Assembly: GCA_963798215.1 (NCBI GenBank)
Contig: CAWCSP010000004.1
Location: 134,751 to 198,750 of the forward strand
DNA length: 64,000 bases
Source: an uncultured Acidobacteriota bacterium
GTDB taxonomy: Bacteria; Acidobacteriota; Thermoanaerobaculia; UBA5066
Reading direction: 5' to 3'
Below are positions 36,701-63,929 of the stretch, piece after piece (positions within the stretch are counted from its first letter, which is position 1; each line of letters opens with the position of its first letter). The notes beneath the pieces are model-generated. The model saw only the letters and a program-made list of their open reading frames with translations. It made no database searches and had not been told where the DNA came from. The translations under genes were made by a program, and so were the position numbers.

Positions 36701-39153
36701 GCGTATCGCGGGCGTTCGGACGCGCGTGCCCCCCGGGGCGACGCGGGCTTCCTCCTCTACGACCCCAATGTCCCCCCCACCACGTGCGCCCTCGTGGGTG
36801 ACGCGGACCTGCCGCACATCGACCCGCCCACGCTCGACGAGAGCGCCGCGACGCCGGACCGGTTGCGACAGGACAACGGCGGTGCGGGCCCGTACGACTC
36901 CACCAAGCCCGACTACGCCTTCTTCGCCCTCGACACGACTTCGATCGTGAACGCGTTCCTGCAGATCGTGGCCGCGACCGCCGCCGGCGACTACTCGACG
37001 AGCGCGCCCGTCTCGGGCGGAGGCGTCTCGCTGGGCTCGATCGTCCTCCTGCCGTCCACGGAGTACCCGAGCTGGAAGGGCCACCTCCGGGCCTACGACA
37101 CGTCGAGCGGGACGAACGTCCTCAAGTGGGACGCCGCGGACGTCCTCAACAACCCGACACAGCCCTGGCAGCCCACGCCGGACAAGCGCGCCATCTACAC
37201 GTGGGACCCCGCGACCGGGACGCTGATCCCGGTGACCGCGGCAAACCTCGCGTCCCTGGTGGGGCTGGCCGGAGGGGACCCCGCGTTCACGGCGAACGTC
37301 GTGGACTTCATCCGCGGCTTCGACGGGACGCTCACGAACACGCCGCGCTTCAAGGCGGGGACGAACGCGTGCGACTCGACCGGATGGCTGCTCGGCCCCG
37401 TCGTCAACTCGACGCCGGCCGTCGTCGGCGGGCCGTACCAGTACAAGCAGTTCGGAAACGTCGCCGACCACCGGCCGTTCGAGGCCGTGTACGCGGCGCG
37501 CCGGCCGCTCGCGTGGGCAGGCTCGGACGACGGGCTGCTTCACGCCTTCGACTTCAACGACGGGACCGAGGTGATCGCGCTCCTGCCGCCGAACCTGCTC
37601 GCGAACGAGATCAAGCTCTACGCGAACTACGTCGCCGGGATCCCGATGAACGAGTACGTCACCGGCCAGGTGAGCCCGCTGGACCAGCACATCTGGGGCG
37701 TCGCGAACTCCCTCCGCTTCACGGACGTCTACTCTTCCGGGTTGGCCAGATGGTACCGCGGCCGGCTACAAGACGGTCGGGCTTCCTGACGGAAGGGCCC
37801 GGCGGCGACCTCATCGCCGCGATCGACGTCACGCACGTCTTCCCGGGGTACCCCACGGCGACGCCCCCGGTCCCCAACGACCCGAACTACGACTCGTCGA
37901 ACCCGGTCACGATCCTCTGGACGAAGAACTCCTCCGACTACACCGGCCTCTTCGGAAGCTGGAGCGTCCCGGCGGTCGCGGCCGACAACTTCTCGACGAA
38001 CCGGATGTTCTTCGGCGCGGGCATCAACCCGGCCAGCCTCCTGACGGCCTCCGTGGACGCGACCGCGTTCGTCGTCGACCCGACGGACGGGACCCTCAAC
38101 CACGCCGTCACGCTCACGAAGGTCGCGTCGCCCTCACCGCTCGTGGGCCAGCAGTCGTTCGCGGACGGCGTGTTCTTCCAGACCAAGGCGCCCGGCTACC
38201 TCCCGGACAACATCGCGGACCTCAGCCTCACGGCGGACCTCAACGGCCAGATCTGGTTCAACTGGAAGAACGGGGGGGCCGACTTCTCCGGAGCGCTGAG
38301 CTCGGCGGTCGGCATCGACCTCAACTCCGCGTCCGGCACGGTGAACGTCTTCACCACGGACTCGAACGGCATCACGACGGTGACGTCCGGCGCCGCCGGG
38401 CCGGCGTCTCCGCAGCCCGACTATTACTCTCCCGCGGCGACGGGTCAGGGGACGTCGGGCTGCCAGATCTACGCGATGGCGAGCGGAAGCCTCTACGAGA
38501 CGAGCCCGACCGTGTCGGGCTGGAACGTGAACCGCAGCGGCTCTCCGCCGTCCCCCTACGACTCCTCGCTGCCGGTATTCACGCCGTACCTCTACGTCGG
38601 CGTCGGCCCGAACAAGATCGGGGACCTCGCGTTCGGAGCGGCCCCGCTCGGCAAGGACCCGAACCAGCAGTACATCCTGAAACAGCGCATCGGCGGGGAG
38701 GTCCCGGACGCGATTCCGCTCCCGCCGGGCGATCCGGCGCTGGCGACCGGCCAGACGAAGCTCGGGCCGCGCACGCAGGTCACGTCCTCTCCGATCATGG
38801 TCGTGGACAGCACGGGCACGGGAGCGGAGAACGCGATCTTCCTGCTGTACGACCCGGACACGGGCTGCAACGGGACGTCGTACGTCGTGATCCTCACCTT
38901 CCAGTCCGGCACGGCGTGCACCGCGCCCACGATCGGGCCCGCGTCCGGCTCGCCCAACACGACGGGAATCGTGGTCCTGGGCGCCGGCCCCGGCGCCGCC
39001 AGCGGCATCACGTTCACGAACACGGGTCTCGTCGCCGCGCAGAGCGGCGTCGGTCCGACCGCGAGCGCGAGCCTCGTGTCCATCGGCATCGACATCAAGG
39101 CGCTCGCCGGGGTGCCGACCTTCCAGCCGGTCTGGTGGAGGGACGTGAAGTAA
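33720..39153 (+). pseudogene. pilY1: PilY1-like type IV pilus tip adhesin with ~385-aa Thr-Pro tandem-repeat linker. Coding sequence is split over four frame segments (about 3 frameshifts).
   Basis: ATG at 33720 (TGATG overlap with pilX), signal peptide. A TPTx repeat runs in frame 0 to ~34653 and continues in frame 1 from 34657, with an extra A in ACGCCGACG[A]GTGACG. Around 35585 it switches to frame 2 (...[12 protein letters not shown]...). This segment carries a vWA-like ILCTDGQSN motif and the PilY1 beta-propeller signature AGSDDGLLHAFDFNDGTEV. Around 37760 it switches to frame 1 (...GPGGDLIAAIDVTHVFPGYP..., the PilY1 C-terminus), ending at 39153. Confidence 0.7.
34005..35158 (+). repeat. 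Codon-periodic tandem repeat (ACG CCG ACG NNN)n encoding a (T-P-T-x)n linker inside pilY1
   Basis: ~1.15 kb of imperfect 12-nt units ([16 protein letters not shown]...). The same DNA read out of frame gives the D/H/A-rich pseudo-ORF. Confidence 0.8.
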
Positions 39154-40468: not shown

Positions 40469-41359
40469 ATGCGTCGGCTTCTGATGATCGCCACGGCGGT
40501 CTTCGCGGGTGTTGCGGCCGTCGCCGGGGCCGACGAGATCTGGCTCAAGGACGGACACTCGATCACGACGAAAAAGCCGGTCGTCACGAAAGGGGCGAAC
40601 GCCCTCATCACGACGGTGGACGGCGTGCTCCTCTCGGTTCCGCTCTCGGAGATCGACCAGGCGAAGACGGCCGAGGAAAGGGCGCGCGCGACGATCCCGA
40701 CGCCGGAGCCGACCCCGAACCTCATGAAGGCCATGACACCCGCCGACGCCGCGCGCCAGAATAGCGGCCGCAAGTCCGTCGTCACGCTGACGGACGACTC
40801 CGTGGCGCACGGCTTCGGCGACGAGACGGCCGAACAGAAGCCCGGCGATGTCGAAGGGCGCGTCGAGGTCACGAACACGACCGCGACGCGCACGAAGGAC
40901 GGGTATGCCTTCACGGGCAGCGTCCTGAATGCCGGGGGCGGTCCCGTCAGCGCGGTGTCCGTGACGATCGAATTCGTCGGGAAGGACGGGAAGACGTTCT
41001 CCTCCACGTACGCGAACGTCGCGAAGGATTCGCTCGGGCCCGGCGAGAAGTCCGCGTTCACCGCGAGCGCACCGCTCGAGGGCGAGGCCGCGTCGTTCCG
41101 CTACCAGGCGCGCTGGCAGAGCGTCACCCCGGTCCGGAAGGCGGACGACAAGGGGCAGCCGGGCGCCAAGGGGAACGCGGCAGCCGAAGCCGAGCCGACG
41201 CCCGTGCCGACGCCGTCGCCCGTGCCCACGCTCGTGCCGATCCCGCGCCCCGACGTGGCGCCCCCGCCGGCGGCCGCTCCGATCGGCAACCCGGCGAACG
41301 GCGTGTTCCTGCCGCCGCCCGACGTCCCGCAGACGACGGCGAAGCCGCCGTCCTCGTGA
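40469..41359 (+). CDS. Secreted hypothetical protein with Pro-rich C-terminus
   Basis: Signal peptide MRRLLMIATAVFAGVAAVAGA. Coding-like composition. C-terminal PTPVPTPSPVPTLVPIPRP. Confidence 0.5.
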   Translation: MRRLLMIATAVFAGVAAVAGADEIWLKDGHSITTKKPVVTKGANALITTVDGVLLSVPLSEIDQAKTAEERARATIPTPEPTPNLMKAMTPADAARQNSGRKSVVTLTDDSVAHGFGDETAEQKPGDVEGRVEVTNTTATRTKDGYAFTGSVLNAGGGPVSAVSVTIEFVGKDGKTFSSTYANVAKDSLGPGEKSAFTASAPLEGEAASFRYQARWQSVTPVRKADDKGQPGAKGNAAAEAEPTPVPTPSPVPTLVPIPRPDVAPPPAAAPIGNPANGVFLPPPDVPQTTAKPPSS

Positions 41360-41381: not shown

Positions 41382-42743
41382 ATGAGCGCGGAGATCCTGC
41401 TCGTCGAGGACCGCGAGTCGCTGCGCGCGATGCTCGCCGAGACGCTCGCGAACGAGGGCTACACCGTCGAGCCCGTCGCGACGGGCGAGGAGGCGGTGCG
41501 CCGGCTCGGCGAGGGGCGCCGCTACGGCCTCATCCTCACGGACCTCAAGATGCCGGGCGCCGACGGCATCGCCGTCCTGAAGGCGGCGGTCGCCGCGGAC
41601 CCGTCCGTCCCCGTCGTCGTCCTCACGGGCTTCGGGACGGTCGAGACCGCGGTCACGGCGATGAAGTGCGGCGCCGCCGACTTCCTCAGCAAGCCCGTCG
41701 ACCCGGACCTGCTGCTCCTCCTCGTCGAGCGGCACGTGCGCGCGCGCCGCTCGGCGGTCGCCCGCGTCCTGCTCGCCGAGGAGGCCGGGCTCACCGGCAT
41801 GCCGCGGATCGTCGGCTCCTCGCGCGCGCTCGCCGAGGCCCTCGAGCGCGTCCGCCACGCCGCGCCGTCCGACGTCACGGTCCTCCTGACCGGGGAGTCG
41901 GGCACCGGCAAGGAGCTCTTCGCCCGCGCCCTCCACGCCCTGTCGCCGCGCGCGCCCGGACCGTTCGTTGCCGTGAACGTCGCGGCGCTTCCGGAAAGCC
42001 TCGTCGAGAACGAGCTCTTCGGCCACGAGCGCGGCGCCTACACGGGCGCGACGGACCGCCGCGCGGGACGCTTCGAGCTCGCGGACGGGGGGACGCTCTT
42101 TCTCGACGAGATCGGGGATCTCCCGCCGGCGGCCCAGACGAAGCTCCTGCGCGTCGTCGAGGAGCGGACGTTCCTGCGCGTCGGCGGGACGGTGCCGATC
42201 AGCGTGGACGTGCGGCTCGTCGCGGCGACGAACCGCGACCTCGGTCAGCGCGTGAAGGCCGGCGCCTTCCGCGAGGACCTGTTCTACCGTCTCGACGTGT
42301 TCCCGGTGCACCTTCCGCCGCTGCGCTCGCGGCCGGAGGACATCCCGGCGCTCGCGAAGAGCTTCGCGGCCGCCGCCGCCCGGCAGATCAAGAAGAGGGA
42401 GCCGGCGCTCTCGCCCGGCGCCATCGAGAGGCTCGTCGCGCACGACTGGCCCGGGAACGTGAGGGAGCTGCGCAACGTGATGGAGCGCGCCGTGCTGCTC
42501 GCCCCGGGAGAGGTCGTGCGTCCCGCCGACGTCGTCGTGGGCCTTCCGGGCGAGAGCGCGCCCCCGCACCCGACACTCGACGGGACGCTCGAGGAGACCG
42601 CGGAACGCTGGAAGCGCGCCGGCGAGGCCGCCCGCATCCGGCGCGCGCTGGACGAGACCGGCGGGGACAAGACCCGCGCCGCGGAGGACCTCGGCGTGAA
42701 CGTCCGGCGCCTCGTCCAGCGGATGAAGGAGCTCGGGCTCTAG
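41382..42743 (+). CDS. pilR: Sigma-54-dependent response regulator (NtrC family; PilR-like)
   Basis: Receiver domain (DLKMPG, D54-like). AAA+ sigma-54 interaction domain with GESGTGKE Walker A and the [17 protein letters not shown]-like motif. C-terminal HTH. Confidence 0.85.
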
Positions 42744-44110
42744 CGGGAGGGCGCGGACTCGAGCGCGGCGCCGAGGTCGGCGTCCTCCTCTTCCGCGACG
42801 CTGCGCAGGTCGAGGAGGACGCGGCCGTCCTCGATCCGCGCGACGACGGGGAGCGCGCCGGCGCGCAGGGCCGCGGCGAGCGCGTCGGCGGAGAGGCCGG
42901 GGCGGCGGAGCGCGACGGCCGCCGAGGGCAGCGTCGACTCCGCGCCGGCGCCGCCTCCCGCGACCGCCGTCGACGCCACGGCCTCCGCCTCGAAGCCCGA
43001 CGAGCGCGCCCGCGCGGCCAGCTTTTCTGCACGGATTCGCAGGGAGTCCAATGAAGCCCCGAGCATCCGGAAGAACGGGACCTCGCCGCTCCGGTCCGAG
43101 AGGTGGAGGTCGAGCGTGGCGGCGAGGGCGCCGAGGACGAGCTTGTCCGGGCGCAGCGCGCGCGCGAGCGGGTTTTTCGCGGCCCTCGCGACGAGGTCCG
43201 CCCGGCCGATGAGGATCCCCGCCTGCGGGCCGCCGAGCACCTTGTCGCCCGAGAAGCACACGAGGTCGGCCCCGGCGTCGAGAGCCTCGAGCGGCACGGG
43301 CTCGTCCGCGAGTCCCGGCTCCTCGAAGCGGCGCGGCGCGCCCGCGCCGGCGTCGTAGACGAGCGGAATGCCGCGCGAGCGCGTGAGCGCGGCGAGCGCC
43401 GCGAGGGGAACCTCCTCCGTGAAGCCGACGATGCGGTAGTTGGACGGTCGCACCTTGAGGACAACCGCGGCGCCCGCGTCGAGCGCCTCGAGATAGTCCG
43501 CCTCCGCCGTCCTGTTCGTCGTCCCGACCTCGAGGAGCGACGCCCCGCTCCTGGCGAGGATCGACGGGACGCGGAAGTCGCCGCCGATCGCGACGAGCTC
43601 GCCGCGCGACACGGCCACGGGCCTGCCGTTCGCGAGCGTGTCGAGGGCGAGGAGGAGCGCCGCCGCCGCGTTGTTCACGGCGAGGGCGTCGACGCCCGGC
43701 CGGCCCTTCGCGAAGAGCTCGAGGAGCAGGGGGCGGACGTGCTCGCCGCGCCGCCCGCGCCCGCCGGTCGCGAGGTCGAGCTCGAGCGTCGAGAACCCCG
43801 CGGCGCGTGCGGCGGCCTCGACGGCGGCCGTCGCGAGCGGGGCGCGGCCGAGGTTCGTGTGGAGGAGGACGCCCGTGGCGTTCAGGACGCGCACGGGTCC
43901 CGCCGCGGGACGGGCCGCGAGGCGCTCCCCGGCATCACGGAGGATCTCCTCCTCGGCGGAGCCGGCGGGCGCCCCGCGCCAGCGCGCGGCGGCCTCGCGC
44001 AGGGCGGTCTTCGCGCGCTCGCGGCCGTGCCGCCCGGCCAGGGCGCGCCCGGCGGGGGTGTCGAGGAGGCGGTCCATCGCGGGCGGCCGCGGGCCGGAGT
44101 CCATGGTCAC
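42740..44110 (-). CDS. selA: L-seryl-tRNA(Sec) selenium transferase
   Basis: 456 aa with SelA signatures (NATGVLLHTNLGRAPL, FSGDKVLGGPQAGILIG containing the PLP-lysine). Confidence 0.8.
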   Translation of the reverse strand: MTMDSGPRPPAMDRLLDTPAGRALAGRHGRERAKTALREAAARWRGAPAGSAEEEILRDAGERLAARPAAGPVRVLNATGVLLHTNLGRAPLATAAVEAAARAAGFSTLELDLATGGRGRRGEHVRPLLLELFAKGRPGVDALAVNNAAAALLLALDTLANGRPVAVSRGELVAIGGDFRVPSILARSGASLLEVGTTNRTAEADYLEALDAGAAVVLKVRPSNYRIVGFTEEVPLAALAALTRSRGIPLVYDAGAGAPRRFEEPGLADEPVPLEALDAGADLVCFSGDKVLGGPQAGILIGRADLVARAAKNPLARALRPDKLVLGALAATLDLHLSDRSGEVPFFRMLGASLDSLRIRAEKLAARARSSGFEAEAVASTAVAGGGAGAESTLPSAAVALRRPGLSADALAAALRAGALPVVARIEDGRVLLDLRSVAEEEDADLGAALESAPSR

Positions 44111-52632: not shown

Positions 52633-53820
52633 ATGAAGACGCTCCTCCGCACGACCTTCGCGCTTCTCTTCGTCATGGGGCTCTCGTGCCGCGCCGCCCA
52701 GACCGCCTCGCCGCCCACGGCGACGGCGAAGCCCGCCGCCGCGAAGCCGGAGGGCCTGACCGAGTGGGCCGACGGCCTGTTCGCGTGGGGTGCGGGGAAG
52801 ACGACGCTCGAGGAGATCACGACCCTCAAGATCCCGGGCACGCGGATCTACCTCGCGAAGCGGACATACGCGGCCGACCCCCGGATGAACGACCAGGCCC
52901 ACCTCTTCGTCGAGGAGGGCGGCAAGATCCTCGTCGGCGACGTCTTCTACGACGAGGACCGCGCGAAGAATCCCTCGCCCGTCCGCACGGACGCCGACCT
53001 CGAGAGCATGCGCTCAAAGGTCCGGCAGTTCCTGATCGGCGGCTTCAGCCTCGTCCTCGACCCCGCCTCCGACCGGAAGAACTGGAAGGGCGTGACCGTG
53101 AAGATGGACACGGGCTACGGGATCACCCCGATGGCCGCGTTCATCAAGGCGGACGACGGGACGCTGCTCGTCATCGGCCGGTTCTGGGACCGCAACCGCT
53201 CGATCGCCGAGCAGCGGCGAGAGGGCATCAAGCTCGCGGGCGCCCCGATGACGGGTCCCGCGGACGCGAGGGTGACGGTCGTCGAGTACTCGGACATGGA
53301 GTGCGGCTTCTGCAAGAAGCGCACGGCGGACTTCGACGCCCTCGTCGCGAAGATGTCGAAGGAGCTGACGATCAAGCGGTACATCAAGCTGTTCCCGCTC
53401 ACGACCGCGCATCCGTGGGCCTACCGCGCGGCATCGGCGGGACGATGCTTCTTCGACCTCAAGGGCGCCTCGGCGTTCTTCCGGTGGAAGTCGGCGGTGT
53501 ACGCGAGGCAGGACGAGCTTTCCGTGCCGGGCGTCGACTCGTTCGCGATGGACTTCGCCTACGCGAACGAGATCCCGGACGCACAGTTCCGCGCCTGTTA
53601 CCTGCAGGCGAAGTCGAACGACAAGATCCACGCCGACCTCACCGAAGGCTGGGCCCTGCGCGTGCGCTCGACGCCGACCTACTACATCGACGGCGTCTAC
53701 GTTTCGTGGTTCTCGGACAACATCATGGAGGAGTTCCTTCGCACGACGTACCTCGGCGGCAAGGGACTCCCATTGCCCGCGGCGCCCACGGCGGTGCCGG
53801 CAGGCGCCGCGAAGCACTGA
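52633..53820 (+). CDS. Secreted DsbA-family thiol:disulfide oxidoreductase (thioredoxin fold, CGFC active site)
   Basis: Lipoprotein-like signal (MKTLLRTTFALLFVMGLSC). VVEYSDMECGFCKK CxxC motif in a DsbA-like context. Confidence 0.7.
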   Translation: MKTLLRTTFALLFVMGLSCRAAQTASPPTATAKPAAAKPEGLTEWADGLFAWGAGKTTLEEITTLKIPGTRIYLAKRTYAADPRMNDQAHLFVEEGGKILVGDVFYDEDRAKNPSPVRTDADLESMRSKVRQFLIGGFSLVLDPASDRKNWKGVTVKMDTGYGITPMAAFIKADDGTLLVIGRFWDRNRSIAEQRREGIKLAGAPMTGPADARVTVVEYSDMECGFCKKRTADFDALVAKMSKELTIKRYIKLFPLTTAHPWAYRAASAGRCFFDLKGASAFFRWKSAVYARQDELSVPGVDSFAMDFAYANEIPDAQFRACYLQAKSNDKIHADLTEGWALRVRSTPTYYIDGVYVSWFSDNIMEEFLRTTYLGGKGLPLPAAPTAVPAGAAKH

Positions 53821-53955: not shown

Positions 53956-55899
53956 CTAATTCTTGAAGGGCACCTGGACGGCGATCCAGGTCTTCACGTT
54001 CACGCCGTTCTTCGTCGCGGGCTTCCAGCGCCACTCATCGAGCGCGTGAACGCTCGCGGCGCCGAGGCCGACGCTCGGGGTCACGTCCCTCAGGATCTCG
54101 ACCTTGGCCGGCCTGCCGGTCTCGTCGACGAGGACGCGCAGGAGGACCGTGCCCGAGACCCGCTGCTGCCTGGCCATCGGCGGGATGACGGGGCTGACCT
54201 GGCGTGTCGGGGCGGGCGGCGTGTCGCAGACGTCGACATCGACGAAGTCCCCCTCCTTCACGGGCGCCGCGGGCGGCGCAGCGGCGCCCGCCGCTGCCTG
54301 GGCTTCCTCGCGCCGCTTCGCGGCGGCCTCGCGGGCCAGACGCGTGGCCTCCTCGCGGTCCGAGCGGTTGCGGGCGGCGCGGGCCGCGTCCTCGCTCTCG
54401 CGCGCCTTCCGTGCCTCCTCGGACACCTGCTCGATGTCGGCCAGCTTCTTCTTCGCGGCGGAGTCCTGCTGCTTGGCCGCGCGCGCTTCCTGTTTCTTGA
54501 GCTCCTCGTCGAGCCTTTTCTGGACCGCGGCCTGGAAGAGCGGGTCGTCTTTGCCGACGACGACGGGCTCGAGCGTGGGGACCGGCGTCGGCGGCGCCGC
54601 GGTCGGCCGGGGCGTGGGCGCGGGCGCGGGGGCGGGCGCGGGAGCGTGCGGACGCAGCGCGAGGAACGCGCCGGCACCGAGGACGGCGGCCGACCCGAGT
54701 GCCACGGCCCAGACCGGGACTCCGCCCAGCGGCTTCTTCGGCGCGCCGGTCATCGTCCGCACCGGCGCGGCGCCCTTCGCGGGCGCGGGCCGGACGGGAG
54801 CGGGCGGGACGACCGGTCCCGGGCTGGAAGGCATGCGGCGCGAGCCGGTGGACGAATCCACCTTGCGGGCGGGCGGGGCCGGGTCGGGCCTCTTCGTGCC
54901 GCCGCTCGACTCGAGGCGGCGGCGGCCGGTCGTTTCGGCCGCCGCGAGCGCGGCGGGGTCGAACTGCTCCTCGGCGGCGAGCTCCGATTTCTCCCGCTGG
55001 ATCGCGCGCTCGAAGTTCTTCTGAAGGAAGAACGCGAGGTTGAACGTCGACGGCGCGTACGGACCCCCGAACAGGAGGGCCGAGAGGTCGCGCCGGTAGT
55101 TCGCGACGCTGCGGTCGCGCGTCGCCGGGTCCGGGTGGAGGGCGCGGCGCAGGAGGCGCCGGATGTCCTCGGGCACGGGCGAGCCGTCCACCGCGAGCGT
55201 GGACGTTTCGACCGCCTCGAGGGCGACGCCCGGGAGCGGCGGCTTGCCCGTGAGCGCTTCGAAGAGGATGGCGCCCACGCTGTAGAGGTCGCCCCCCGCG
55301 CCCGGCCTGCCGGACGCGAGGACCTCCGGGGCGATGTAGGGCGCGAAGGCCTGCCGCGCGCGCGGCACCGAGAGCGACGGGAGAAGCCCCGCCCCGAGAC
55401 CGAATCCGAAGACGCGGGCCTCGCCCTCGTTCGAGATGGAGACGAACGCCGGGATGAGGAAGCCGTGGGGGGCGCCCGTGTAGCGCTCGACCGCGGCGCC
55501 CGCCTCGAGCGCGGTCAGGAGGCGTTCGGCGATCAGGAGGCCGTGCTCGGCGGGCAAGACGGCGCCGAGCACGCGCGCCGCGAGAAGCGTGTCGAGCGTG
55601 CGGCCCTCGACGTACTCGACCGCGAGGAACGGCGTGTCGTCGATGACGCCGAGGACCGTGCCCTTCGCGACCGCGGCGCCCTGGACGTCGTCGATGAGGT
55701 GGACGGCCGTTTCCATCGCGGCGTGGAGAGCGGCCCGGTCGACGGCGGCCGACGTGAACGTGCGGAACAGGTGGAACGGCCGCAGCCGGGGCGCTCCGGC
55801 GGTCCCGCCGCGCCACACCTCTCCGAGCGGATCGCTTCCGATCGCGCGCGTGAGGACGTACGGCCCGAAGGACCGCGGGCTGGATGCGGACGCGCTCAT
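53956..55899 (-). CDS. TonB C-terminal domain protein with large N-terminal cytoplasmic pseudokinase (degenerate Ser/Thr kinase-like) domain
   Basis: 647 aa. The N-terminal ~300 aa is kinase-like, with conserved APE (YIAPEVL) and DxYSxG (DLYSVGAILFEALTG). The catalytic HRD is HGF and the DFG is FGFG, so it is predicted inactive. A TM helix follows (VWAVALGSAAVLGAGAFLAL), then an AP/Pro-rich spacer and a charged coiled region. The C-terminus is a TonB_C domain (VSGTVLLRVLVDETGRPAKVEILRDV...VKTWIAVQVPFKN). Confidence 0.65.
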   Translation of the reverse strand: MSASASSPRSFGPYVLTRAIGSDPLGEVWRGGTAGAPRLRPFHLFRTFTSAAVDRAALHAAMETAVHLIDDVQGAAVAKGTVLGVIDDTPFLAVEYVEGRTLDTLLAARVLGAVLPAEHGLLIAERLLTALEAGAAVERYTGAPHGFLIPAFVSISNEGEARVFGFGLGAGLLPSLSVPRARQAFAPYIAPEVLASGRPGAGGDLYSVGAILFEALTGKPPLPGVALEAVETSTLAVDGSPVPEDIRRLLRRALHPDPATRDRSVANYRRDLSALLFGGPYAPSTFNLAFFLQKNFERAIQREKSELAAEEQFDPAALAAAETTGRRRLESSGGTKRPDPAPPARKVDSSTGSRRMPSSPGPVVPPAPVRPAPAKGAAPVRTMTGAPKKPLGGVPVWAVALGSAAVLGAGAFLALRPHAPAPAPAPAPTPRPTAAPPTPVPTLEPVVVGKDDPLFQAAVQKRLDEELKKQEARAAKQQDSAAKKKLADIEQVSEEARKARESEDAARAARNRSDREEATRLAREAAAKRREEAQAAAGAAAPPAAPVKEGDFVDVDVCDTPPAPTRQVSPVIPPMARQQRVSGTVLLRVLVDETGRPAKVEILRDVTPSVGLGAASVHALDEWRWKPATKNGVNVKTWIAVQVPFKN

Positions 55900-55947: not shown

Positions 55948-57018
55948 TCAGGGAGCGGCGCGGTCCTCGCGTGCGGCCCGCTTCGCCTCGTGGTACCGGG
56001 CCGCGTTGCGCTGCTGGTCCTCGTAGTCCCGCGAAAAGAGGTGCGATCCGTCGCCCGCGGCGACGAAGTAGCGGTAGTCGACGTCGGCGGGCGAGACGGC
56101 CGCGCGCAGGGACGCGAGCCCGGGGCTGCAGATGGGCCCGGGCGGCAGGCCGGCACGCACGTAGGTGTTGTACGGCTCGTCCAGCGTGAGGTCCGACCGG
56201 GCGAGCGTGCCCCGCCAGAGCCCGAGACGCTTCAGCGCGTAGATCGTCGTCGGGTCGCACTGCAGAAGCATCCCGGCCTTGAGCCGGTTGCAATAGACGC
56301 CCGCGACGATCGGTCGCTCGGCGGGGAGGGCGGTTTCCTTCTCGACGAGGGAGGCGAGCGTCGTCGCCTCGAGGACGCCGAGGTTCATCGCCTTCGCCTT
56401 CTCCGCGAAGTCGGGCGGGGCGCGGCGCGCGAACTGGCGCGTCATCGCGGAGAGGATCTCGCGCGCCGTCATCGAACGCGTGACCGTGTACGTGTCGGGG
56501 AAGAGAAAACCCTCGAGCGTCGGGGCGCCCGCAGGGACGCCCTCGAATTCCGCCGGGCGCGTGAAGAGGAAGTCGTAGTCCTTCTGCGCCGCGAAGCCCT
56601 GGGACGAAAAGAGCGAGAAGATCTCTTCGGCCGTGAAGCCCTCGGGCACCGTGATTCGATACGTCACGACGTCGCCCGCGACGAGCGAGAGCACGATCTG
56701 GTCGGGGGCGCGAGGCCCCGCGAAGCGGTACTCGCCGGCCTTGAGCGTCTTGCCGCGATGCAGCACCTTGAGCGCGACCATGCCGAGCCGCCAGTCCCTG
56801 AGGACTCCGAGGCCCTCGAGGCGAGTGAACACGGCGGCCGAGGGCGTCCGCGGCGCGATCGAGACGATGACCTCGTCGCCTTCGTAGCCCTTGTACGGGG
56901 CGCGGATGCCATAGAGGATCAGGCAGAAGCCGACCGCTCCGGCGAGCAGGACGAAGAGCGCGACCCACACGAGGAGCGGGAAGAGGTGGCGCTCGTGGAT
57001 CGCGGAGCGGCGGGTCAC
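55948..57018 (-). CDS. mltG: Endolytic murein transglycosylase MltG (YceG family)
   Basis: N-terminal TM helix, then YceG-like domain motifs (LQCDPTTIYAL, EPYNTYVRAGLPPGPICSPG). Confidence 0.85.
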   Translation of the reverse strand: MTRRSAIHERHLFPLLVWVALFVLLAGAVGFCLILYGIRAPYKGYEGDEVIVSIAPRTPSAAVFTRLEGLGVLRDWRLGMVALKVLHRGKTLKAGEYRFAGPRAPDQIVLSLVAGDVVTYRITVPEGFTAEEIFSLFSSQGFAAQKDYDFLFTRPAEFEGVPAGAPTLEGFLFPDTYTVTRSMTAREILSAMTRQFARRAPPDFAEKAKAMNLGVLEATTLASLVEKETALPAERPIVAGVYCNRLKAGMLLQCDPTTIYALKRLGLWRGTLARSDLTLDEPYNTYVRAGLPPGPICSPGLASLRAAVSPADVDYRYFVAAGDGSHLFSRDYEDQQRNAARYHEAKRAAREDRAAP

Positions 57019-57028
57019 CGCCGCCTCT

Positions 57029-57460
57029 TCACGCGACGTCTCCCGCGTGCGCGGAGAGCCAGTCGCGGAGAAGGACCGCCGCGGCCTCGGCGTCGCGCGC
57101 GGCGTCCCGGCGGCCCCGCGGGAGCCCGGCGGCGCGAAGGTCCCGCTCGGCGTCCGCCGAGGTCAGACCCTCGCCGTGGAGGTCGACCGGGAGCCCGGAC
57201 GCGGCCTCGAGCCGGCGCGCGAAGTTCCGCGCGCGCCGAGCAAGGAGGCCCTCCCGGCCGTCGAGGTGGCGTGGAAGCCCGACGACGATGCGGGTCGCAT
57301 CGCGTTCCTTCGCGGAGGTGGCGACCTCCGCGGCCGCCTGCGCGTCGCTCGCGCGGGCGACGGCGCCCACCGGCACGACGACGCGACCGGTCTCGTCCGA
57401 CACCGCGAGGCCGATGCGCTTTTCGCCGAAGTCGACCGCGAGGACGCGCACGAGTCTCAT
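57029..57460 (-). CDS. ruvX: Holliday-junction resolvase-like RNase RuvX (YqgF)
   Basis: MRLVRVLAVDFGEKRIGLAVSD is the canonical YqgF N-terminus with the catalytic Asp. The ruvX-mltG arrangement is a conserved gene pair. Confidence 0.85.
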   Translation of the reverse strand: MRLVRVLAVDFGEKRIGLAVSDETGRVVVPVGAVARASDAQAAAEVATSAKERDATRIVVGLPRHLDGREGLLARRARNFARRLEAASGLPVDLHGEGLTSADAERDLRAAGLPRGRRDAARDAEAAAVLLRDWLSAHAGDVA

Positions 57461-57543: not shown

Positions 57544-58725
57544 ATGAGCCAAGACGTCTTCATCCTCGCCGCCGCCCGCACGCCGATCGGGTCCTTCCTC
57601 GGCTCGCTCTCCACGCTCTCCGCGCACGCCCTGGGCGCCGTCGCGATCCGCACCGCCGTCGAGCGTTCCGAGGTCCCGGCCGCGCGCGTCGAACACGTCT
57701 GGATGGGCAACGTTCTCCTGGCCGGCCAGGGCCAGGCGCCCGCGCGCCAGGCCTCGCTCGCGGCAGGCCTTCCGAAGAGCACCGGCTGCATCACGCTCCA
57801 CAAGGTCTGCGGCTCGGGCATGCGCGCCGTCATGGACGCGGCGAATGCGCTGCGGACGGGCGAGTTCGAGGTGGCCGTCGCGGGCGGCATGGAGTCCATG
57901 TCGAACGCGCCGTACCTCCTGCCGAAGGGGCGTCTCGGCCTCCGGATGGGCCACGGCCAGCTCCTCGACTCGATGATCTCGGACGGCCTGTGGGACCCGT
58001 ACAAGAACATCCACATGGGCGTCTGCGCGGAGATGTGCGCCGAGAAGTACGCGTTCACGCGCGAGGCCCAGGACGCCTTCGCGCTCGAGAGCTACCAGCG
58101 CGCGCGCCGCGCGAACGAATCGGGCGACTTCAACGCCGAGTTCGCGGCCGTCACGGTCGAGGGCAAGAAGGGCCCGACCGTCGTGGACCGCGACGAGGAG
58201 CCGTTTGCGACGCCGCCCGAGAAGCTCGAGAAGATGGGGTCGCTGAAGCCGGCGTTCCAGAAGGAGGGCACGGTGACGGCGGCGAACGCCTCGAAGATCA
58301 ACGACGGGGCGTGCGCGCTCGTCCTCGCGGGCGACAAGGCCGCCGCGGGTGGCAAGCCCGTCGCACGTCTCGTGTCGCAGGCGTCCTTCGCGCAGGAGCC
58401 CGAGTGGTTCACGACGGCGCCGATCGCCGCCGCGAAGAAAGCCGCCGAACGCGCCGGCGTCCCGCTCTCGTCGATCGACCTCTTCGAGGTGAACGAGGCG
58501 TTCGCGGTCGTCGCGATGGCGTTCATCAAGGACCTCGACCTCGACCCGAACAAGGTGAACGTGAACGGCGGCGCGGTCGCGCTCGGCCATCCGATCGGGG
58601 CCTCCGGCGCCCGGATCATCACGACGCTCGTGCACTCCCTGAAGGCGCGGAAGAAGAAGTACGGGCTGGCGTCCATCTGCATCGGGGGCGGCGAAGCGAC
58701 CGCTGTGGTCGTCGAAGCCCTCTGA
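57544..58725 (+). CDS. Acetyl-CoA C-acetyltransferase (thiolase II)
   Basis: 393 aa. Thiolase motifs: active-site Cys in VCGSGMRAV, NVNGGAVALGHPIGASGARI, ICIGGGEATAVVVE. Confidence 0.9.
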   Translation: MSQDVFILAAARTPIGSFLGSLSTLSAHALGAVAIRTAVERSEVPAARVEHVWMGNVLLAGQGQAPARQASLAAGLPKSTGCITLHKVCGSGMRAVMDAANALRTGEFEVAVAGGMESMSNAPYLLPKGRLGLRMGHGQLLDSMISDGLWDPYKNIHMGVCAEMCAEKYAFTREAQDAFALESYQRARRANESGDFNAEFAAVTVEGKKGPTVVDRDEEPFATPPEKLEKMGSLKPAFQKEGTVTAANASKINDGACALVLAGDKAAAGGKPVARLVSQASFAQEPEWFTTAPIAAAKKAAERAGVPLSSIDLFEVNEAFAVVAMAFIKDLDLDPNKVNVNGGAVALGHPIGASGARIITTLVHSLKARKKKYGLASICIGGGEATAVVVEAL

Positions 58726-58740
58726 CGCCATAATCGGGCC

Positions 58741-59453
58741 GTGATCGACAAGGTCGTGCGTGCGGGGAGCCCGGCGGAAGCGGCGGCGAAGGCCGTCGCC
58801 GACGTGCCGTCGGGCGCGACTCTCGTCGTCGGCGGCTTCGGCCTCTGCGGCATCCCCGAGAACCTCATCCTCGCGCTCGCGTCCTCGGGCGTGAAGGACC
58901 TCACCTGCGTCTCGAACAACTGCGGCGTCGACGACTGGGGCCTGGGGCTCCTCCTCGGGAAAAAGATGATCCGGAAGATGCTCTCGTCCTACGTCGGCGA
59001 GAACGCGGAGTTCGAGCGCCAGTACCTCTCGGGCGAGCTCGAGCTCGAGTTCTGCCCCCAGGGCACGCTCGCCGAGCGGATGCGCGCCGGCGGGGCCGGG
59101 ATCCCGGGCTTCTACACGCCGACCGGCGTGGGGACGATCGTCGCCGAGGGCAAGGAGACGAAAGTCTTCGACGGGAAGGAATATCTCCTGGAGCGGGGCA
59201 TCGTGGGGGACTTCGCCCTCGTCGCCGCGTGGAAGGGCGACCGGCTCGGCAACCTCGTCTACCGCAAGACCGCGCGCAACTTCAATCCGATGGCGGCGAC
59301 GGCGGGGAAGATCACGATCGCCGAGATCGAGCACCTCGTCGAGCCGGGGGAGCTCGACCCCGACGCGATCGACACGCCGGGCGTGTTCGTGCAGCGGGTC
59401 GTCGTGGCGCCGCGCGTCAAGCGCGTCGAGCGGCGCACCGTGAGGAAGGGCTG

Positions 59454-59454
<1 letters not shown>
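58741..59454 (+). CDS. scoA: 3-oxoacid CoA-transferase subunit A
   Basis: GTG start. CoA-transferase family I alpha motifs ([25 protein letters not shown]). Confidence 0.85.
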
Positions 59455-60116
<662 letters not shown>

Positions 60117-60167
60117 GGGGCGCGCCGATTGCTCTTGCGCGACACGTGCGACGTTTCGGCACGGGCG

Positions 60168-60280
60168 ACGGTCTGCAAATTTCTTCGAAGGTGAATGGGG
60201 CCCGGGGCGCGCCGGTGCGCCGCATCCGCGCCGGGGCGGCGCACCACGCCGAGACGCTCCTTCACCCTTCTAAGAAAATC
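60168..60280. repeat. Palindromic element copy F (113 bp) in the 5' region of lptD
   Basis: Left arm AATTTCTTCGAAGGTGAATGGGGCCCGGGG and right arm CTCCTTCACCCTTCTAAGAAAATC. The interior is related to copy B. Confidence 0.65.
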
Positions 60281-60295
60281 CACCGTTCCCGCCTG

Positions 60296-62530
60296 TTGCG
60301 CGTGTTGCTCGTGTGGATCGCCGTCGCGGCCTGCACGGGAGCAAAACTCTCCCTCTCCCAGTCCTCGTTCGACACCGACCCCTTCGCCGCGCGGTTCAAG
60401 GAGAAGGGCGGATTCGAGCCGAAGTTCAAGGTTCCGGAGAAGGGAGGGACGATCACGATCCGGATCGACGCGGGCGACGAGGGCGGCGCGCAGGGCAAGC
60501 AGACGATCGTCGACGAGGACCTCTTCACCGCCGAGGCGCCGCCCGGTAAGTTCGTGCGGGTCGAGTACCAGGACATCCGGCTCACCGCGCGGCGCGTCAC
60601 CGGGAGCTACAAGCGTCACACGGTCGTTGCGGAAGGCGACGTCCTCCTCGTACAGGGGGCCTCGCAGATGTCGGGCGCGCGGCTGGACCTCGACCTGAAC
60701 GACAAGGTCGGCGTCCTCCTCGACGGCAGGGTCGACCTCGAGGGCGGCCTGCACCTCACGGGCGCCCTGCTCGCGAAGGTCGGGCCGAAGAGCTTCACGA
60801 TCACGGAAGGCACCGTGACCGCGTGCGAGGGCGACGACCCCGCGTGGAAGTTCGTCGTGAAGAGCGGCCGCGTGACGCTCGAGGACTACGCGCGGCTGAA
60901 GAACGCGACGTTCAAGATCGGCGGCATCCCGCTCCTCTGGACGCCGTACATCCTCTGGCCCGCGCTGCGCGACCGCGCGTCGGGGTTCCTCGTCCCCGGA
61001 CTCGGTTACAACTCCACGCGCGGCGGCTACTTCGGCATGTCGTACTACTGGGCGATCGACCGCTCGTGGGACGCGACGTTCTCGGGCGACTTCTACACGG
61101 AGAAGTACTACGGCCTCGGCGCGGAGGTGCGCGGGCAGCCGTCGCTCGGCACGAAGTTCGAGGGGACGTACTACACGATCTGGGACCCGACGGTCGATCA
61201 GTGGCGCTGGCAGACGGTGGGCCGGCTCGTCGCGGACGACATCGCCCCGCAGGTCCGCGGCGTCGTGACGTGGCTGGACTTCTCGGACCCCACGTTCTTC
61301 CAGGAGTTCAACCGCAACTTCGCGCTCGGGTCGACGCAGTCGATCAAGAGCGAGGGGTTCCTGACCTGGGGCCCGGACCCGTGGGCCCTCAACCTGCGTC
61401 TATCGCGCGAGCAGGCGATCGGGTTCGCCGACGGCAGCTCGGTCGTGAGCGAGCGCCTGCCCGCCCTCGAGGTGCGGCTGCGGCCGACGCCGGTCCTCGG
61501 CCAGAACGTCTTCGTCGAGTTCACCGGGCAGGGGGGGATGCTCCACGTCGACCGCGGAGAGGGCCAGCCGTCGGGCACGTACGACCGCTTCGACCTCTTC
61601 CCGCAGATCAGCGCGCCGCTCTCGATCGCGCCGTGGCTCTCGCTCAACGCCTCCGTCGGCGGGCGCGTCACGACGTACGGCATGTCCCTGTCCCCGGACG
61701 GCACGACGCTCCTGCCCGAGCGGTACACGCGCGAGGCGCTCGTGACGGATCTTCAGGTCACGGGGCCGTCCTTCTCCCGCCTTTTCGACTGGTCGATCGG
61801 CCCGTTCCGGAAGTGGAAGCACGTCATCGAGCCGCGCGCCGAGTGGAGCTATCTCGCGGGCCGGGACGACTTCGCCTCGACGCCGCTCTTCGACGAGATC
61901 GACTCGCTGATCCCGACGAACTCGCTCCGCTACTCGCTTCTCCAGCACCTTCTCGCCAAGGGAGAGACGGGCGGCTCCCGCGAGATCGCGTCGTTCGAGA
62001 TCGCGCGCTACTACTACTTCCGCCTTCCGGGCGAGGGCACGGCCTACGGCCCGACCCCCGGCGTCCAGCGCACCTCGCCGACGGACTTCATCCTCCGGGT
62101 GAACGCGGCGCAGGGGCTCAACTTCGACAGCCGGGTCACGCTGGACTCGCACTTCTCCCAGGTGACCGCCGCGAGCGTGACGGCGATCCTCACGGGCGGC
62201 GAGCGCTCGCTCGCGCTCTCGCTCTTCGACAGCCATCCGGTCGTGCTCCCTCCCGCGGTCGACCCGGGCGCGTCCGCGCAGCTCCGGATCTCGGGCGGGG
62301 TGCCGATCCTCCCGAAGCGCCTCCGGTTCGACGTCGAGGCGAACTACGACCTCACGCTGGGCAAGATGCTCGAATCCCGCTCGCTGTTGACCCTTCAGGC
62401 ATCGTGTTTCAAGATCCTCGTCGAATACCGCGATCTGCGCACCGGAACGGCGCCCTCGCGGGATTACCGGATCGCCCTGACTCTCAGGAACGTCGGGAGC
62501 TTCCTGGATTTCACCGGCAGCCTGCCCTGA
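60296..62530 (+). CDS. lptD: LPS-assembly outer-membrane protein LptD (OstA N-terminal domain and beta-barrel)
   Basis: Start uncertain; TTG/GTG candidates at 60296-60311 just after repeat F, before a signal-peptide-like LRVLLVWIAVAACTGA. The OstA-like N-domain contains ...GDVLLVQGASQMSGARLDLDLND.... The large C-terminal barrel has the characteristic aromatic-rich strands. Confidence 0.7.
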   Translation: MRVLLVWIAVAACTGAKLSLSQSSFDTDPFAARFKEKGGFEPKFKVPEKGGTITIRIDAGDEGGAQGKQTIVDEDLFTAEAPPGKFVRVEYQDIRLTARRVTGSYKRHTVVAEGDVLLVQGASQMSGARLDLDLNDKVGVLLDGRVDLEGGLHLTGALLAKVGPKSFTITEGTVTACEGDDPAWKFVVKSGRVTLEDYARLKNATFKIGGIPLLWTPYILWPALRDRASGFLVPGLGYNSTRGGYFGMSYYWAIDRSWDATFSGDFYTEKYYGLGAEVRGQPSLGTKFEGTYYTIWDPTVDQWRWQTVGRLVADDIAPQVRGVVTWLDFSDPTFFQEFNRNFALGSTQSIKSEGFLTWGPDPWALNLRLSREQAIGFADGSSVVSERLPALEVRLRPTPVLGQNVFVEFTGQGGMLHVDRGEGQPSGTYDRFDLFPQISAPLSIAPWLSLNASVGGRVTTYGMSLSPDGTTLLPERYTREALVTDLQVTGPSFSRLFDWSIGPFRKWKHVIEPRAEWSYLAGRDDFASTPLFDEIDSLIPTNSLRYSLLQHLLAKGETGGSREIASFEIARYYYFRLPGEGTAYGPTPGVQRTSPTDFILRVNAAQGLNFDSRVTLDSHFSQVTAASVTAILTGGERSLALSLFDSHPVVLPPAVDPGASAQLRISGGVPILPKRLRFDVEANYDLTLGKMLESRSLLTLQASCFKILVEYRDLRTGTAPSRDYRIALTLRNVGSFLDFTGSLP

Positions 62531-62735
62531 CGAGAGATCGGCGACTCCGGGGACACTTCCCGACAGAGCGCCTCTCCCGGCGTCCAAAAAACCGTACAGG
62601 AGACTCGCCATCCACCGCTTCCGGATTTCCCTGGCCCTCGCGGGCGTCGTCACGGCCGCCCTGGGAGCCCTTCCCCTGGCTGGCCAGACATCCAGCCCGG
62701 TTTCCTCCGTTCCGGCCTCCTGCTCGGCGCCCGTC

Positions 62736-63929
62736 GTGATCGACCCGTCCTCCCTCCCGTACGCCTCGCCCGGGATCGACACGCGCTCGATGACGTACGA
62801 CGCCCAGGTCCCGGCTTTCCCGTGCGACGGGAAGCTCGTGCTCCCGACCGGCGGCCAGGTGCGGCCGTCGAAGATCGTCTGGTTCTCGTTCACGCCCGCG
62901 GCGTCCGACACCTACCGGATCGACACCCTCGGATCGACGCCCGCGGACTACGACACCATCCTCGGCGTCTACACCGGCGGCTGCGGGTCGCTCGCTCCCG
63001 TGTCCGGCGTCTGCGGAAAGAGCGGATTCAACCCGGACGACGTGCCCGGCTCCCTCCAGTCGTCGGTGAGGCTCAACCTCGAGGCCGGGACGACGTACAC
63101 GATCGCGGTCGGTTCGATCGGCAGCGTCAACTCCTACACCGGCCTGGTGGACGCCCCGGCTGGCGGCATCCTCAAGCTCGACGTCGCCCGCGTCGCTGCG
63201 TCCTACCCGTATACGTACGTCGTGCCGTCGGTCGTCCACTCGGGCGGCGCCACGAGCGACATCTTCGTCACGAACCTCGAGAACTCGGACGCGCAGTTCG
63301 TCGCGCAGTATCTCTCCCACGGAAGCGACGGCGACCAGACGATGCCGTCCCGGCAGGTGCAGCCGCCAGCGCAGATCGTCCCGGCGGGCGGGACGCGCCT
63401 GTACACGGACGTCGTCGGGCTCCTCGGATTCGCCGACGACTGGGGGGCGCTCCTGCTGCAGTCGACCCGCCGGCTCGCCCCGGGCGGCCGCACTTGGGCG
63501 CCGGCCGCGGGAGGCGGCACGGTCGGCCCGTACACGGCCGCCGTCGAGGTCTCGCCCGGCCTCGCCTCGCCGGAAGCGCTCGCGACGGGGGAGACGGGCC
63601 GGTTCACCGGAGTCCGCGAGGACGCGGCGGCGCGGACGAACCTCGTCTTCGTGAATCTCTCGACCGTGCCCTGCGTCCTCAAGGCCGAGGTCCTCGACGC
63701 CGTGGGCGCCGTGCTCGGAGCGGCCAGGACGGTGTCGGTGCCGCCCTTCACGGCGATGCAGAAACAGGGCCTCAAGAACACGTTCGCGACCTCCGCGGAC
63801 GTCCGGGACGCGTCTGTCGCCGTCCAGAACGTGACGGCCGGCTGCTCGGTCGTCGGCGTCGCGTACGTCTTCGACGGGAACACGACGCCCGGGACGAACG
63901 ACTCCTACGCGGTCCCCCTCCGCAAGTAA
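62736..63929 (+). CDS. Secreted hypothetical protein (Gly/Thr/Ser-rich beta-type); true start probably upstream at ~62610-62631 with a non-canonical initiator
   Basis: Listed ORF starts at GTG 62736. The same frame is open upstream and encodes a signal-peptide-like IHRFRISLALAGVVTAALGALPLAGQTSS after an AGGAGA RBS at ~62597. No ATG/GTG/TTG is present there; only ATC/ATT/CTG. Confidence 0.45.
   Translation: MIDPSSLPYASPGIDTRSMTYDAQVPAFPCDGKLVLPTGGQVRPSKIVWFSFTPAASDTYRIDTLGSTPADYDTILGVYTGGCGSLAPVSGVCGKSGFNPDDVPGSLQSSVRLNLEAGTTYTIAVGSIGSVNSYTGLVDAPAGGILKLDVARVAASYPYTYVVPSVVHSGGATSDIFVTNLENSDAQFVAQYLSHGSDGDQTMPSRQVQPPAQIVPAGGTRLYTDVVGLLGFADDWGALLLQSTRRLAPGGRTWAPAAGGGTVGPYTAAVEVSPGLASPEALATGETGRFTGVREDAAARTNLVFVNLSTVPCVLKAEVLDAVGAVLGAARTVSVPPFTAMQKQGLKNTFATSADVRDASVAVQNVTAGCSVVGVAYVFDGNTTPGTNDSYAVPLRK

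Follow-up and report, generated by a model that had tools for sequence, protein, structure and literature searches.

TonB and TolA bind their motors through the SHLS motif in the transmembrane (TM) helix (PMC12204202), and a strand near the membrane, the D-box, constitutes a second motor contact (PMC10907165). In GltG and GltJ of Myxococcus xanthus, the TM helices (residues 330-348 and 385-405) lie behind cytoplasmic signalling regions of 330-385 amino acids, and a domain resembling the TonB C-terminal domain (TonB-CTD) binds a periplasmic or outer-membrane partner (PMC11761067, PMC11135422). The TonB-like protein SjdR of Anabaena shapes septal peptidoglycan structures and is not involved in siderophore uptake (PMC8262864). 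As for bacterial pseudokinases, seven families have been catalogued (ActPs1-3, GLW, CP1, DYD and DLHK), with hallmarks such as GLW in place of HRD together with a poly-Leu beta3 strand (GLW), an activation-loop deletion (ActPs3) or large insertions (ActPs2) (PMC12599244; bioRxiv 10.1101/2025.01.12.632604). The pseudokinase of MviN serves, once phosphorylated by PknB, as a docking site for FhaA, whose recruitment restrains peptidoglycan synthesis (PMC12599244). Neither the pseudokinase review (PMC12599244) nor the atlas (bioRxiv 10.1101/2025.01.12.632604) mentions TonB or Acidobacteria. The present work concerns gene X, the label used here for the open reading frame (ORF) at positions 53956..55899 (minus strand) of a stretch of 64,000 nucleotides, hereafter the window, from an uncultured bacterium of the Thermoanaerobaculia (assembly GCA_963798215.1, contig CAWCSP010000004.1, positions 134,751 to 198,750), a class of Acidobacteriota according to a taxonomy look-up.

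Gene X encodes a pseudokinase-TM-spacer-TonB_C protein of 647 amino acids. Pfam, AlphaFold2 and Foldseek agree with the original prediction, made from the sequence of this DNA, that one ORF joins a kinase fold to a TM helix, Pro-rich spacer and TonB_C domain, but the role then assigned to the protein, that of a TonB-type energy transducer, was not supported. We tentatively read it as a bitopic inner-membrane, non-enzymatic trans-envelope adaptor or sensor rather than a canonical ExbBD-driven TonB, and would give this reading slightly less than an even chance. The observations on which it is based are the architecture, the loss of catalytic residues, the pattern of conservation, the synteny, the missing His or S-x3-H in the TM helix and the lack of motor genes nearby.

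The ORF opens with ATG and runs for 647 codons without an internal stop up to the stop codon at 53956-53958, and the homologue search retrieved a protein 100% identical to its product from a 974-kb ENA contig. An AlphaFold2 model built with a 77-sequence family alignment (mean pLDDT, the predicted local distance difference test, 78.6) contains a confident bilobal kinase fold at residues 10-283 (55051..55872, on the minus strand as are all parts of gene X; block pLDDT 82-96 over residues 11-280). The first Foldseek matches in the PDB were the bacterial Hanks kinases PknA, PknI, PknB and Stk1 (E ~1e-13, target TM-score 0.66-0.76), and the nearest solved structure by sequence was the PknB kinase domain of Mycobacterium tuberculosis (E 7e-11). 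Domain profiles point the same way: NCBIfam PknB_PASTA_kin matches residues 86-314 (E 2e-17), and Pfam Pkinase matches residues 148-261 with 31.9 bits, barely above the cut-off of 31.7. The N-terminal domain is therefore kinase-like, as had been proposed, and full-size, but its predicted length of about 380 residues needs correction. The cytoplasmic region of approximately 395 residues is composed of a kinase-like fold of about 275, a conserved helical extension of about 40 and a disordered linker of about 70. The extension (residues 284-325, 54925..55050) is family-specific, carries the conserved motif S/T-T-F-N-L-A-F-F and is modelled by AlphaFold2 as three further helices (residues 288-325); the juxtamembrane linker (residues 326-395, 54715..54924) is rich in Ser, Thr, Arg and Pro, has pLDDT below 50 (modelled as disordered over residues 325-393), is the least conserved region and contains the short motifs LESSGGTKR and VDSSTGSRR.

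A single TM helix, VWAVALGSAAVLGAGAFLA, located by AlphaFold2 at residues 396-414 (54658..54714), has neither a His nor an S-x3-H spacing on motif scanning. It is followed by a disordered periplasmic segment with 42% Pro (residues 415-445, 54565..54657), so that X has the Pro-rich periplasmic linker expected of a TonB, and then by a Pro-flanked, clade-specific motif, VVVGKDDPLF (residues 446-455, 54535..54564), recognized by its conservation. The AlphaFold2 model continues with a charged Ala-rich helix of 85 residues (453-537, 54289..54543; 46% D/E/K/R and 27% Ala), which is likely to be a stiff spacer in the manner of TolA domain II or of a single-alpha-helix. By our own estimate, the Pro-rich segment would measure about 9 nm and the charged helix about 13 nm if fully extended, enough to span the periplasm. 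In distant family members the spacer consists instead of Pro-rich stretches or shorter helices, and the periplasmic part ranges from 160 to 345 residues across the family; because both type and length of the spacer vary, reach rather than sequence seems to matter. At the C-terminus, as in energy transducers, stands a TonB_C domain (residues 555-647, 53959..54237; pLDDT 88-95), detected by Pfam PF03544 at residues 571-646 (50.2 bits against a cut-off of 24.6, E 3.6e-13) and by NCBIfam tonB_Cterm, TIGR01352 (38.3 bits against 27.1).

Among 173 family members, not one has a His or an S-x3-H spacing in the TM core, the motor-binding signature described for TonB and TolA (PMC12204202); the scan looked for these two features of SHLS and took no separate account of its Leu and second Ser. 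Conservation is lower in the TM helix (0.36) and in the linkers (0.16-0.32) than in the pseudokinase (0.45-0.49), the post-kinase helices (0.49) and TonB_C (0.48). Escherichia coli TolQ and ExbD (both verified against the PDB) and ExbB and TolR (sequences unchecked) were used as queries over 1.07 Mb of DNA, comprising the 64-kb window and 89 loci with flanks of 6-10 kb; neither tblastn (E<=1) nor phmmer (E<=0.1) returned a homologue of any of them, bar one marginal tblastn match for TolR (E 0.22). Gene calls and Pfam annotation revealed no ExbB, ExbD, Plug or TonB-dependent receptor domain among the window genes scanned; the genes annotated comprise, among others, a cluster resembling type IV pilus and type II secretion system (T2SS) genes, a sigma-54 regulator, SelA, an active Hanks kinase, Lhr and carboxylase subunits. 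The sole conserved neighbours of gene X are ruvX and mltG.

These data make it unlikely that X is a TonB paralogue energized by the proton motive force, which would pull TonB-dependent transporters while the pseudokinase gates its activity or choice of partner from the cytoplasm. This explanation would account for a TonB_C domain scoring well over threshold and for the Pro-rich spacer, and in the close clade the Pro-flanked, beta-prone VVVGKDDP could mimic a D-box (PMC10907165). The VVVGKDDPLF motif is indeed the most conserved part of the protein in that clade (0.88), but its conservation drops to 0.35 in distant members, from which VVVGKDDP is absent, and it lies some 30 residues past the TM helix, beyond the Pro-rich stretch rather than adjacent to the membrane. 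Moreover, the gene resides in a ruvX-mltG operon and not in an uptake locus. Further evidence would be needed before X is annotated as a functional TonB.

Doubtful to a greater degree is the view that X is the TolA-like protein of the lineage, a tether that stabilizes the outer membrane or acts at the division site. A TolQR-type motor would drive it by way of a non-canonical contact, and the pseudokinase would direct it to a cellular position such as the divisome or elongasome. The helix, being long, charged and rich in Ala, does resemble domain II of proteobacterial TolA, TonB_C and the C-terminal domain of TolA share the principle of strand addition (PMC12204202), and a core single-copy gene adjoining a cell-wall gene would be in keeping with such a role. 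The TM helix, however, lacks the His/S-x3-H signature, no tolQ or tolR was found in the neighbourhood, and no TolB or Pal domain occurs among the Pfam-annotated neighbours (tolB and pal were not searched directly). Furthermore, distant members carry Pro-rich or other spacers in place of the helix.

When X is aligned with PknB, the catalytic stretch HRDvkPaN faces HGFliPaF, and DFG faces GFG. Both replacements, HGF for HRD (residues 145-147, 55459..55467) and GFG for DFG (residues 165-167, 55399..55407), translate as had been predicted, and the C-lobe motifs reported as retained are in place, namely APE (residues 190-192, 55324..55332) and GDLYSVG (residues 203-209). Because the N-lobe of X is too diverged, the comparison with the PknB profile aligned only residues 88-280; the assignments of beta3 and alphaC rely on AlphaFold2 secondary structure (strand 42-47 in the case of beta3) and on aligning X by BLASTP with the active kinase of the window. 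The residues occupying the catalytic positions are R46 (beta3 Lys), F147 (HRD Asp), F152 (catalytic Asn) and G165 (DFG Asp). Their equivalents were counted in 97 aligned cluster representatives, 24-50% identical to the window protein. The beta3 Lys is present in none of them, with Arg in 67; neither is the HRD Asp, for which Phe, Ala, Leu, Cys, Met or Ser is substituted; the catalytic Asn survives in one, Leu or Phe being found in 84; and the position of the DFG Asp is taken by Gly in 93 and by Ala in four. With the Lys and both Asp missing from all 97 relatives, the predicted inactivity of the pseudokinase is supported, and on the evidence of these sequences the loss of catalysis in the family is ancient and complete. 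X therefore has the bilobal fold of a protein kinase but not the catalytic residues of an active Hanks-type enzyme, and corresponds to the general definition of a bacterial pseudokinase, i.e. a kinase fold without one or more residues of the catalytic triad that is conserved as a family.

What has been retained is equally well defined. R30, H145, G146, P150, G165, P191, E192, R261, F286, L288, A289 and E310 are each kept in at least 90 of the 97 relatives; these include the His equivalent to that of HRD (96/97) and the Gly following it (94/97), the Pro and Glu of APE (96/97 and 94/97), the subdomain-XI Arg R261 (96/97) and, in the post-kinase extension, F286 (91/97), L288 (92/97), A289 (94/97) and E310 (90/97). 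In kinases, the Glu of APE usually forms a salt bridge with the Arg of subdomain XI. The kinase cleft, the APE/Arg scaffold and the family-specific post-kinase motif are thus under strong constraint, and near-invariance at non-catalytic positions argues for selection on a binding or conformational role, as would be expected of a binding or switch module. The strong conservation of R30, R46, H145 and G146, which line the cleft, might alternatively mean that the domain is not inert and binds a nucleotide or another ligand, or has a non-canonical activity, X being a receptor with TonB_C as its sensor. ATP binding in the absence of the VAIK Lys is known from some pseudokinases, and Arg replaces this Lys in the ActPs2 family as well (bioRxiv 10.1101/2025.01.12.632604). 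We consider this very improbable, since the Lys, both Asp and the Asn are all missing from X and no Mg-binding residue is left, and since 74 of the 97 relatives have Asp in place of the second Gly of the Gly-rich loop, which should disfavour phosphate binding.

The family extends well beyond the window. A word-indexed search gave 432 homologues, which remain full length as far as 50% identity. They carry the names "TonB family protein" or "serine/threonine-protein kinase" and originate from metagenome-assembled genomes (MAGs) of Thermoanaerobaculia, Acidobacteriota or "Holophagales". Residues 1-320, when searched exhaustively against 1.84 billion representatives, matched 152 clusters (50% identity) at E<=1e-30; nearly all full-length matches align from about residue 5 to 315, thus including the post-kinase motif, and measure approximately 600-770 amino acids. 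Among 72 divergent representatives, TonB_C scores in 69 and Pkinase in 64. When the post-kinase motif was used as search pattern in a scan of one genome per species, relatives were found in 421 genomes, and of the 80 listed among these, 78 are labelled Thermoanaerobaculia, Thermoanaerobaculaceae, Thermoanaerobaculum, Holophagales or Acidobacteriota. The fusion, which had been called rare, appears confined to one lineage, and in that sense the description holds; within the lineage, its occurrence in 421 species genomes and 152 clusters gives it the appearance of a core gene. To our knowledge, Thermoanaerobaculum is the sole cultured genus of this poorly studied class. No description of the fusion was found in the literature on pseudokinases, kinase domain architectures, kinomes or Thermoanaerobaculia in connection with TonB. 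We conclude that the family is real, conserved and previously undescribed. That a kinase-like gene and a tonB were joined by a sequencing or annotation error, in favour of which we found nothing beyond the fact that artefactual joins do happen in these assemblies (as in P0011, see below), can practically be dismissed, because the ORF is continuous and the same full-length, single-ORF architecture recurs in hundreds of independent assemblies at 24-100% identity, which also answers the question of whether the locus might be split into two genes.

Two irregular records were met during this survey. The MAG MFD05942.bin.2.349 contains two whole copies of ruvX-mltG-X-Thioredoxin_4 on different contigs (L031 and L050) with near-identical match statistics, probably an assembly redundancy and not true paralogy. 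One family member (L052) lies on a contig binned as 'Acidithiobacillales bacterium'; since the flanking Thioredoxin_4 and BCCP genes fit the synteny of Thermoanaerobaculia, the contig has probably been mis-binned.

Directly upstream of gene X, after a gap of 48 nt, lies mltG, encoding an endolytic transglycosylase of the YceG family (55948..57018), and 10 nt further upstream lies ruvX (YqgF; 57029..57460), the first gene of the conserved ruvX-mltG-X unit; all three are on the minus strand. They were identified from the ORF list, gene calls, Pfam and synteny. In tblastn comparisons of the window neighbours with 83 loci, the order ruvX-mltG-X was found nearly everywhere that upstream DNA was available, from 100% down to 29% identity. 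Gene calls and Pfam annotation of six loci confirmed the order, and gene X was always the last co-directional gene. The next gene is convergent and varies, being a Thioredoxin_4 lipoprotein, a CsgG/LpoB-like lipoprotein or an unknown gene. In the window it is a Thioredoxin_4 (DsbA-like) gene at 52633-53820 (plus strand), whose product has an N-terminus, MKTLLRTTFALLFVMGLSC, judged by eye to be lipoprotein-like, and which holds its place in the clade with at least 47% identity; in distant clades the CsgG/LpoB-like lipoprotein gene takes this position (L088, 10237-10857; L089, 10179-11568). On the other side, and divergent from ruvX-mltG-X, the wider order LptD, CoA-transferase subunits and thiolase (window ~58700-63500; L001, 3370-5754) is kept across the class (L001, L002, L003, L088 and L089). 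A scan of 53.6-57.8 kb for promoters and terminators gave no promoters and one terminator-like site, which is at chance level.

The TGA stop of mltG (55948-55950) is in frame with the ATG of gene X (55899), 16 codons upstream. The SelA (selenocysteine synthase) gene at 42740-44110 (minus strand) indicates that the organism probably uses UGA-encoded selenocysteine, which matters when TGA stops are judged. A putative MltG-X fusion encoded in P0011 (1020 amino acids, with YceG, Pkinase and TonB_C) was examined and rejected: it results from an assembly frameshift after LKRLGRWRGS, where the MltG part leaves its frame and runs on into X. Topology, too, would make such a fusion impossible.

We infer the adaptor function, the nature of the partners and the link to cell-wall growth from the anatomy of the protein and from its gene neighbourhood. 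In the adaptor model, the dead kinase fold with its TFNLAFF extension would dock or allosterically control a conserved partner in the cytoplasm, for which an active Ser/Thr kinase, an FHA-type reader or the cell-wall machinery are candidates; docking of an active Ser/Thr kinase, suggested in the original prediction, is possible. The weakly conserved TM helix would be a simple anchor, the Pro-rich segment and the helix would carry TonB_C to the zone of the peptidoglycan or outer membrane, and there TonB_C would capture a beta-strand of an envelope partner via strand addition. Since a lineage-wide ruvX-(mltG)-X operon ends with X, the process served is probably housekeeping growth of the cell envelope. 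The cytoplasmic linker may also take part: a motif [LV][ED]SSTGSRR is present in one to three tandem copies in 57 of 115 close homologues, with none seen in the aligned sequences of the distant clade, and, speculatively, it is a candidate phospho-acceptor or docking motif.

Several points weigh against the adaptor model. The best-established role of TonB_C is motor-driven force transduction. GltG, a non-canonical TonB-CTD protein, still couples to a TolQR-like motor (PMC11761067). The search for motor genes reached 6-10 kb around each gene, so that motors, and a canonical TonB or TolA, may be encoded at other places in these genomes. In the close clade, the Pro-flanked VVVGKDDP strand could provide a D-box-like handle for ExbD or TolR. 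As for the connection with the cell wall, ruvX directly precedes gene X without mltG in six loci (L057, L059, L062, L063, L077 and L079), four of which are labelled Thermoanaerobaculum or Thermoanaerobaculaceae, and the mltG-X link may be historical.

A more far-reaching reading would make X the core of an unrecognized Gram-negative counterpart of the PASTA-kinase module, that is, a motor-independent envelope-spanning pseudokinase. TonB_C would read, through strand capture, the state of a partner associated with the outer membrane or peptidoglycan; through allostery, the dead kinase domain would pass this information on, the recipient being an active Hanks kinase, an FHA reader or the elongasome; and the result would be a tuning of glycan-strand termination by the co-transcribed MltG, and of envelope growth, across Thermoanaerobaculia. 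We regard this scheme as rather improbable.

Other genes of the window deserve brief mention. The active Hanks kinase (13342-14514, minus strand; 390 amino acids) has intact HRD and DFG motifs (LHRDITPSN and LLDFGLS), is 24% identical to the pseudokinase domain of X over its full length and adjoins an Lhr-type helicase gene (8748-13328) and a GNAT acetyltransferase gene. The large cluster resembling type IV pilus and T2SS genes (~20500-41000) comprises three genes for T2SSE-family ATPases, one of which (ORF 27676-30198) adds N-terminal HEAT repeats, and genes for a prepilin peptidase, a YfhO-family protein, several N-methyl pseudopilins, a PilX_N protein and a PAS histidine kinase; it is followed by a sigma-54 response regulator (41382-42743). 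The long ORFs 35696-37789, 37126-39153 and 40469-41359 of this region gave no Pfam match. A link between X and this cluster, conceivable by analogy with TonB3 of Pseudomonas aeruginosa, was discarded, as more than 13 kb separate the two and the flanks annotated for homologous loci contain no pilus genes.

Should the adaptor reading be correct, the seven catalogued families of bacterial pseudokinases would be joined by a further one, which no earlier family would precede either in having TonB_C as partner domain or in coming from Acidobacteriota. The small set of TonB-CTD proteins with large cytoplasmic signalling modules would then extend beyond the gliding machinery of Myxococcus. There is also a consequence for annotation. 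Public MAG records label homologues of X "TonB family protein" or "energy transducer TonB" but, because they have no motor-binding TM motif, these proteins should not be counted as evidence of a capacity for TonB-dependent uptake. Being single-copy, lineage-wide and fixed downstream of ruvX-mltG, X is a tractable candidate for a conserved envelope-growth factor in Thermoanaerobaculia.

No single known system combines the features of X. With TonB of the E. coli type it shares the N-in bitopic topology, the Pro-rich periplasmic spacer and the C-terminal TonB_C, but TonB has only a few cytoplasmic residues, whereas X has a cytoplasmic region of about 395 residues and an 85-residue alpha-helix in its spacer, and shows neither the TM His/S-x3-H of SHLS nor exbBD nearby; its possible D-box-like motif is not membrane-proximal. 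TolA resembles X in its TM anchor, long charged alpha-helical domain II and small C-terminal strand-addition domain, and possibly in a housekeeping role in the envelope; however, the C-terminus of X scores as TonB_C with no TolA family among the Pfam matches, a pseudokinase is present, and neither the TM His/S-x3-H, nor tolQR nearby, nor TolB/Pal among the annotated neighbours was found. SjdR, in contrast to X, is cyanobacterial, and no kinase-like domain is mentioned in its abstract (PMC8262864).

The nearest architectural precedent is given by GltG and GltJ of M. xanthus (PMC11761067, PMC11135422), which, like X, have a single TM helix, a long periplasmic linker (disordered in GltG and GltJ) and a TonB-CTD-like domain. 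Their cytoplasmic modules, FHA in GltG and ZnR-GYF in GltJ, differ from the pseudokinase of X, and they belong to the Agl-Glt motility gene set, of which nothing was seen in the neighbourhoods of X inspected; X belongs to a ruvX-mltG operon in a different phylum.

On the kinase side, the PASTA kinases PknB, StkP and Stk1 provide the best sequence and structure matches of the N-terminal domain and have the same topology, with kinase, TM helix and extracytoplasmic binding domain in succession, but they are active and carry PASTA sensor domains, while X is inactive and carries TonB_C. PASTA kinases regulate cell-wall synthesis, and StkP of Streptococcus pneumoniae is functionally linked to MltG. 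From the named pseudokinase families X is set apart, going by their descriptions, by HGF instead of GLW and by LFR instead of LLLL/W in beta3, by a full-length activation segment with APE (as against ActPs3) and by the lack of large insertions (as against ActPs2). The nearest functional precedents among pseudokinases are the MviN pseudokinase and the EssB/YukC scaffold (PMC12599244). MviN (MurJ) of M. tuberculosis, an ActPs3 member, holds a cytoplasmic dead Hanks fold within a membrane protein, as X does, and acts in peptidoglycan synthesis, a connection that for X is suggested by the gene neighbourhood only; it is actinobacterial and polytopic and has the activation-loop deletion, whereas X keeps a full-length activation segment with APE and ends in TonB_C. 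EssB/YukC of type VIIb secretion differs from X in occurring in Firmicutes, in its extracytoplasmic domain and in its secretion-system context, but, like X, it crosses the membrane once and is a pseudokinase in which each of the three catalytic motifs is degraded; it acts as a scaffold (PMC12599244).

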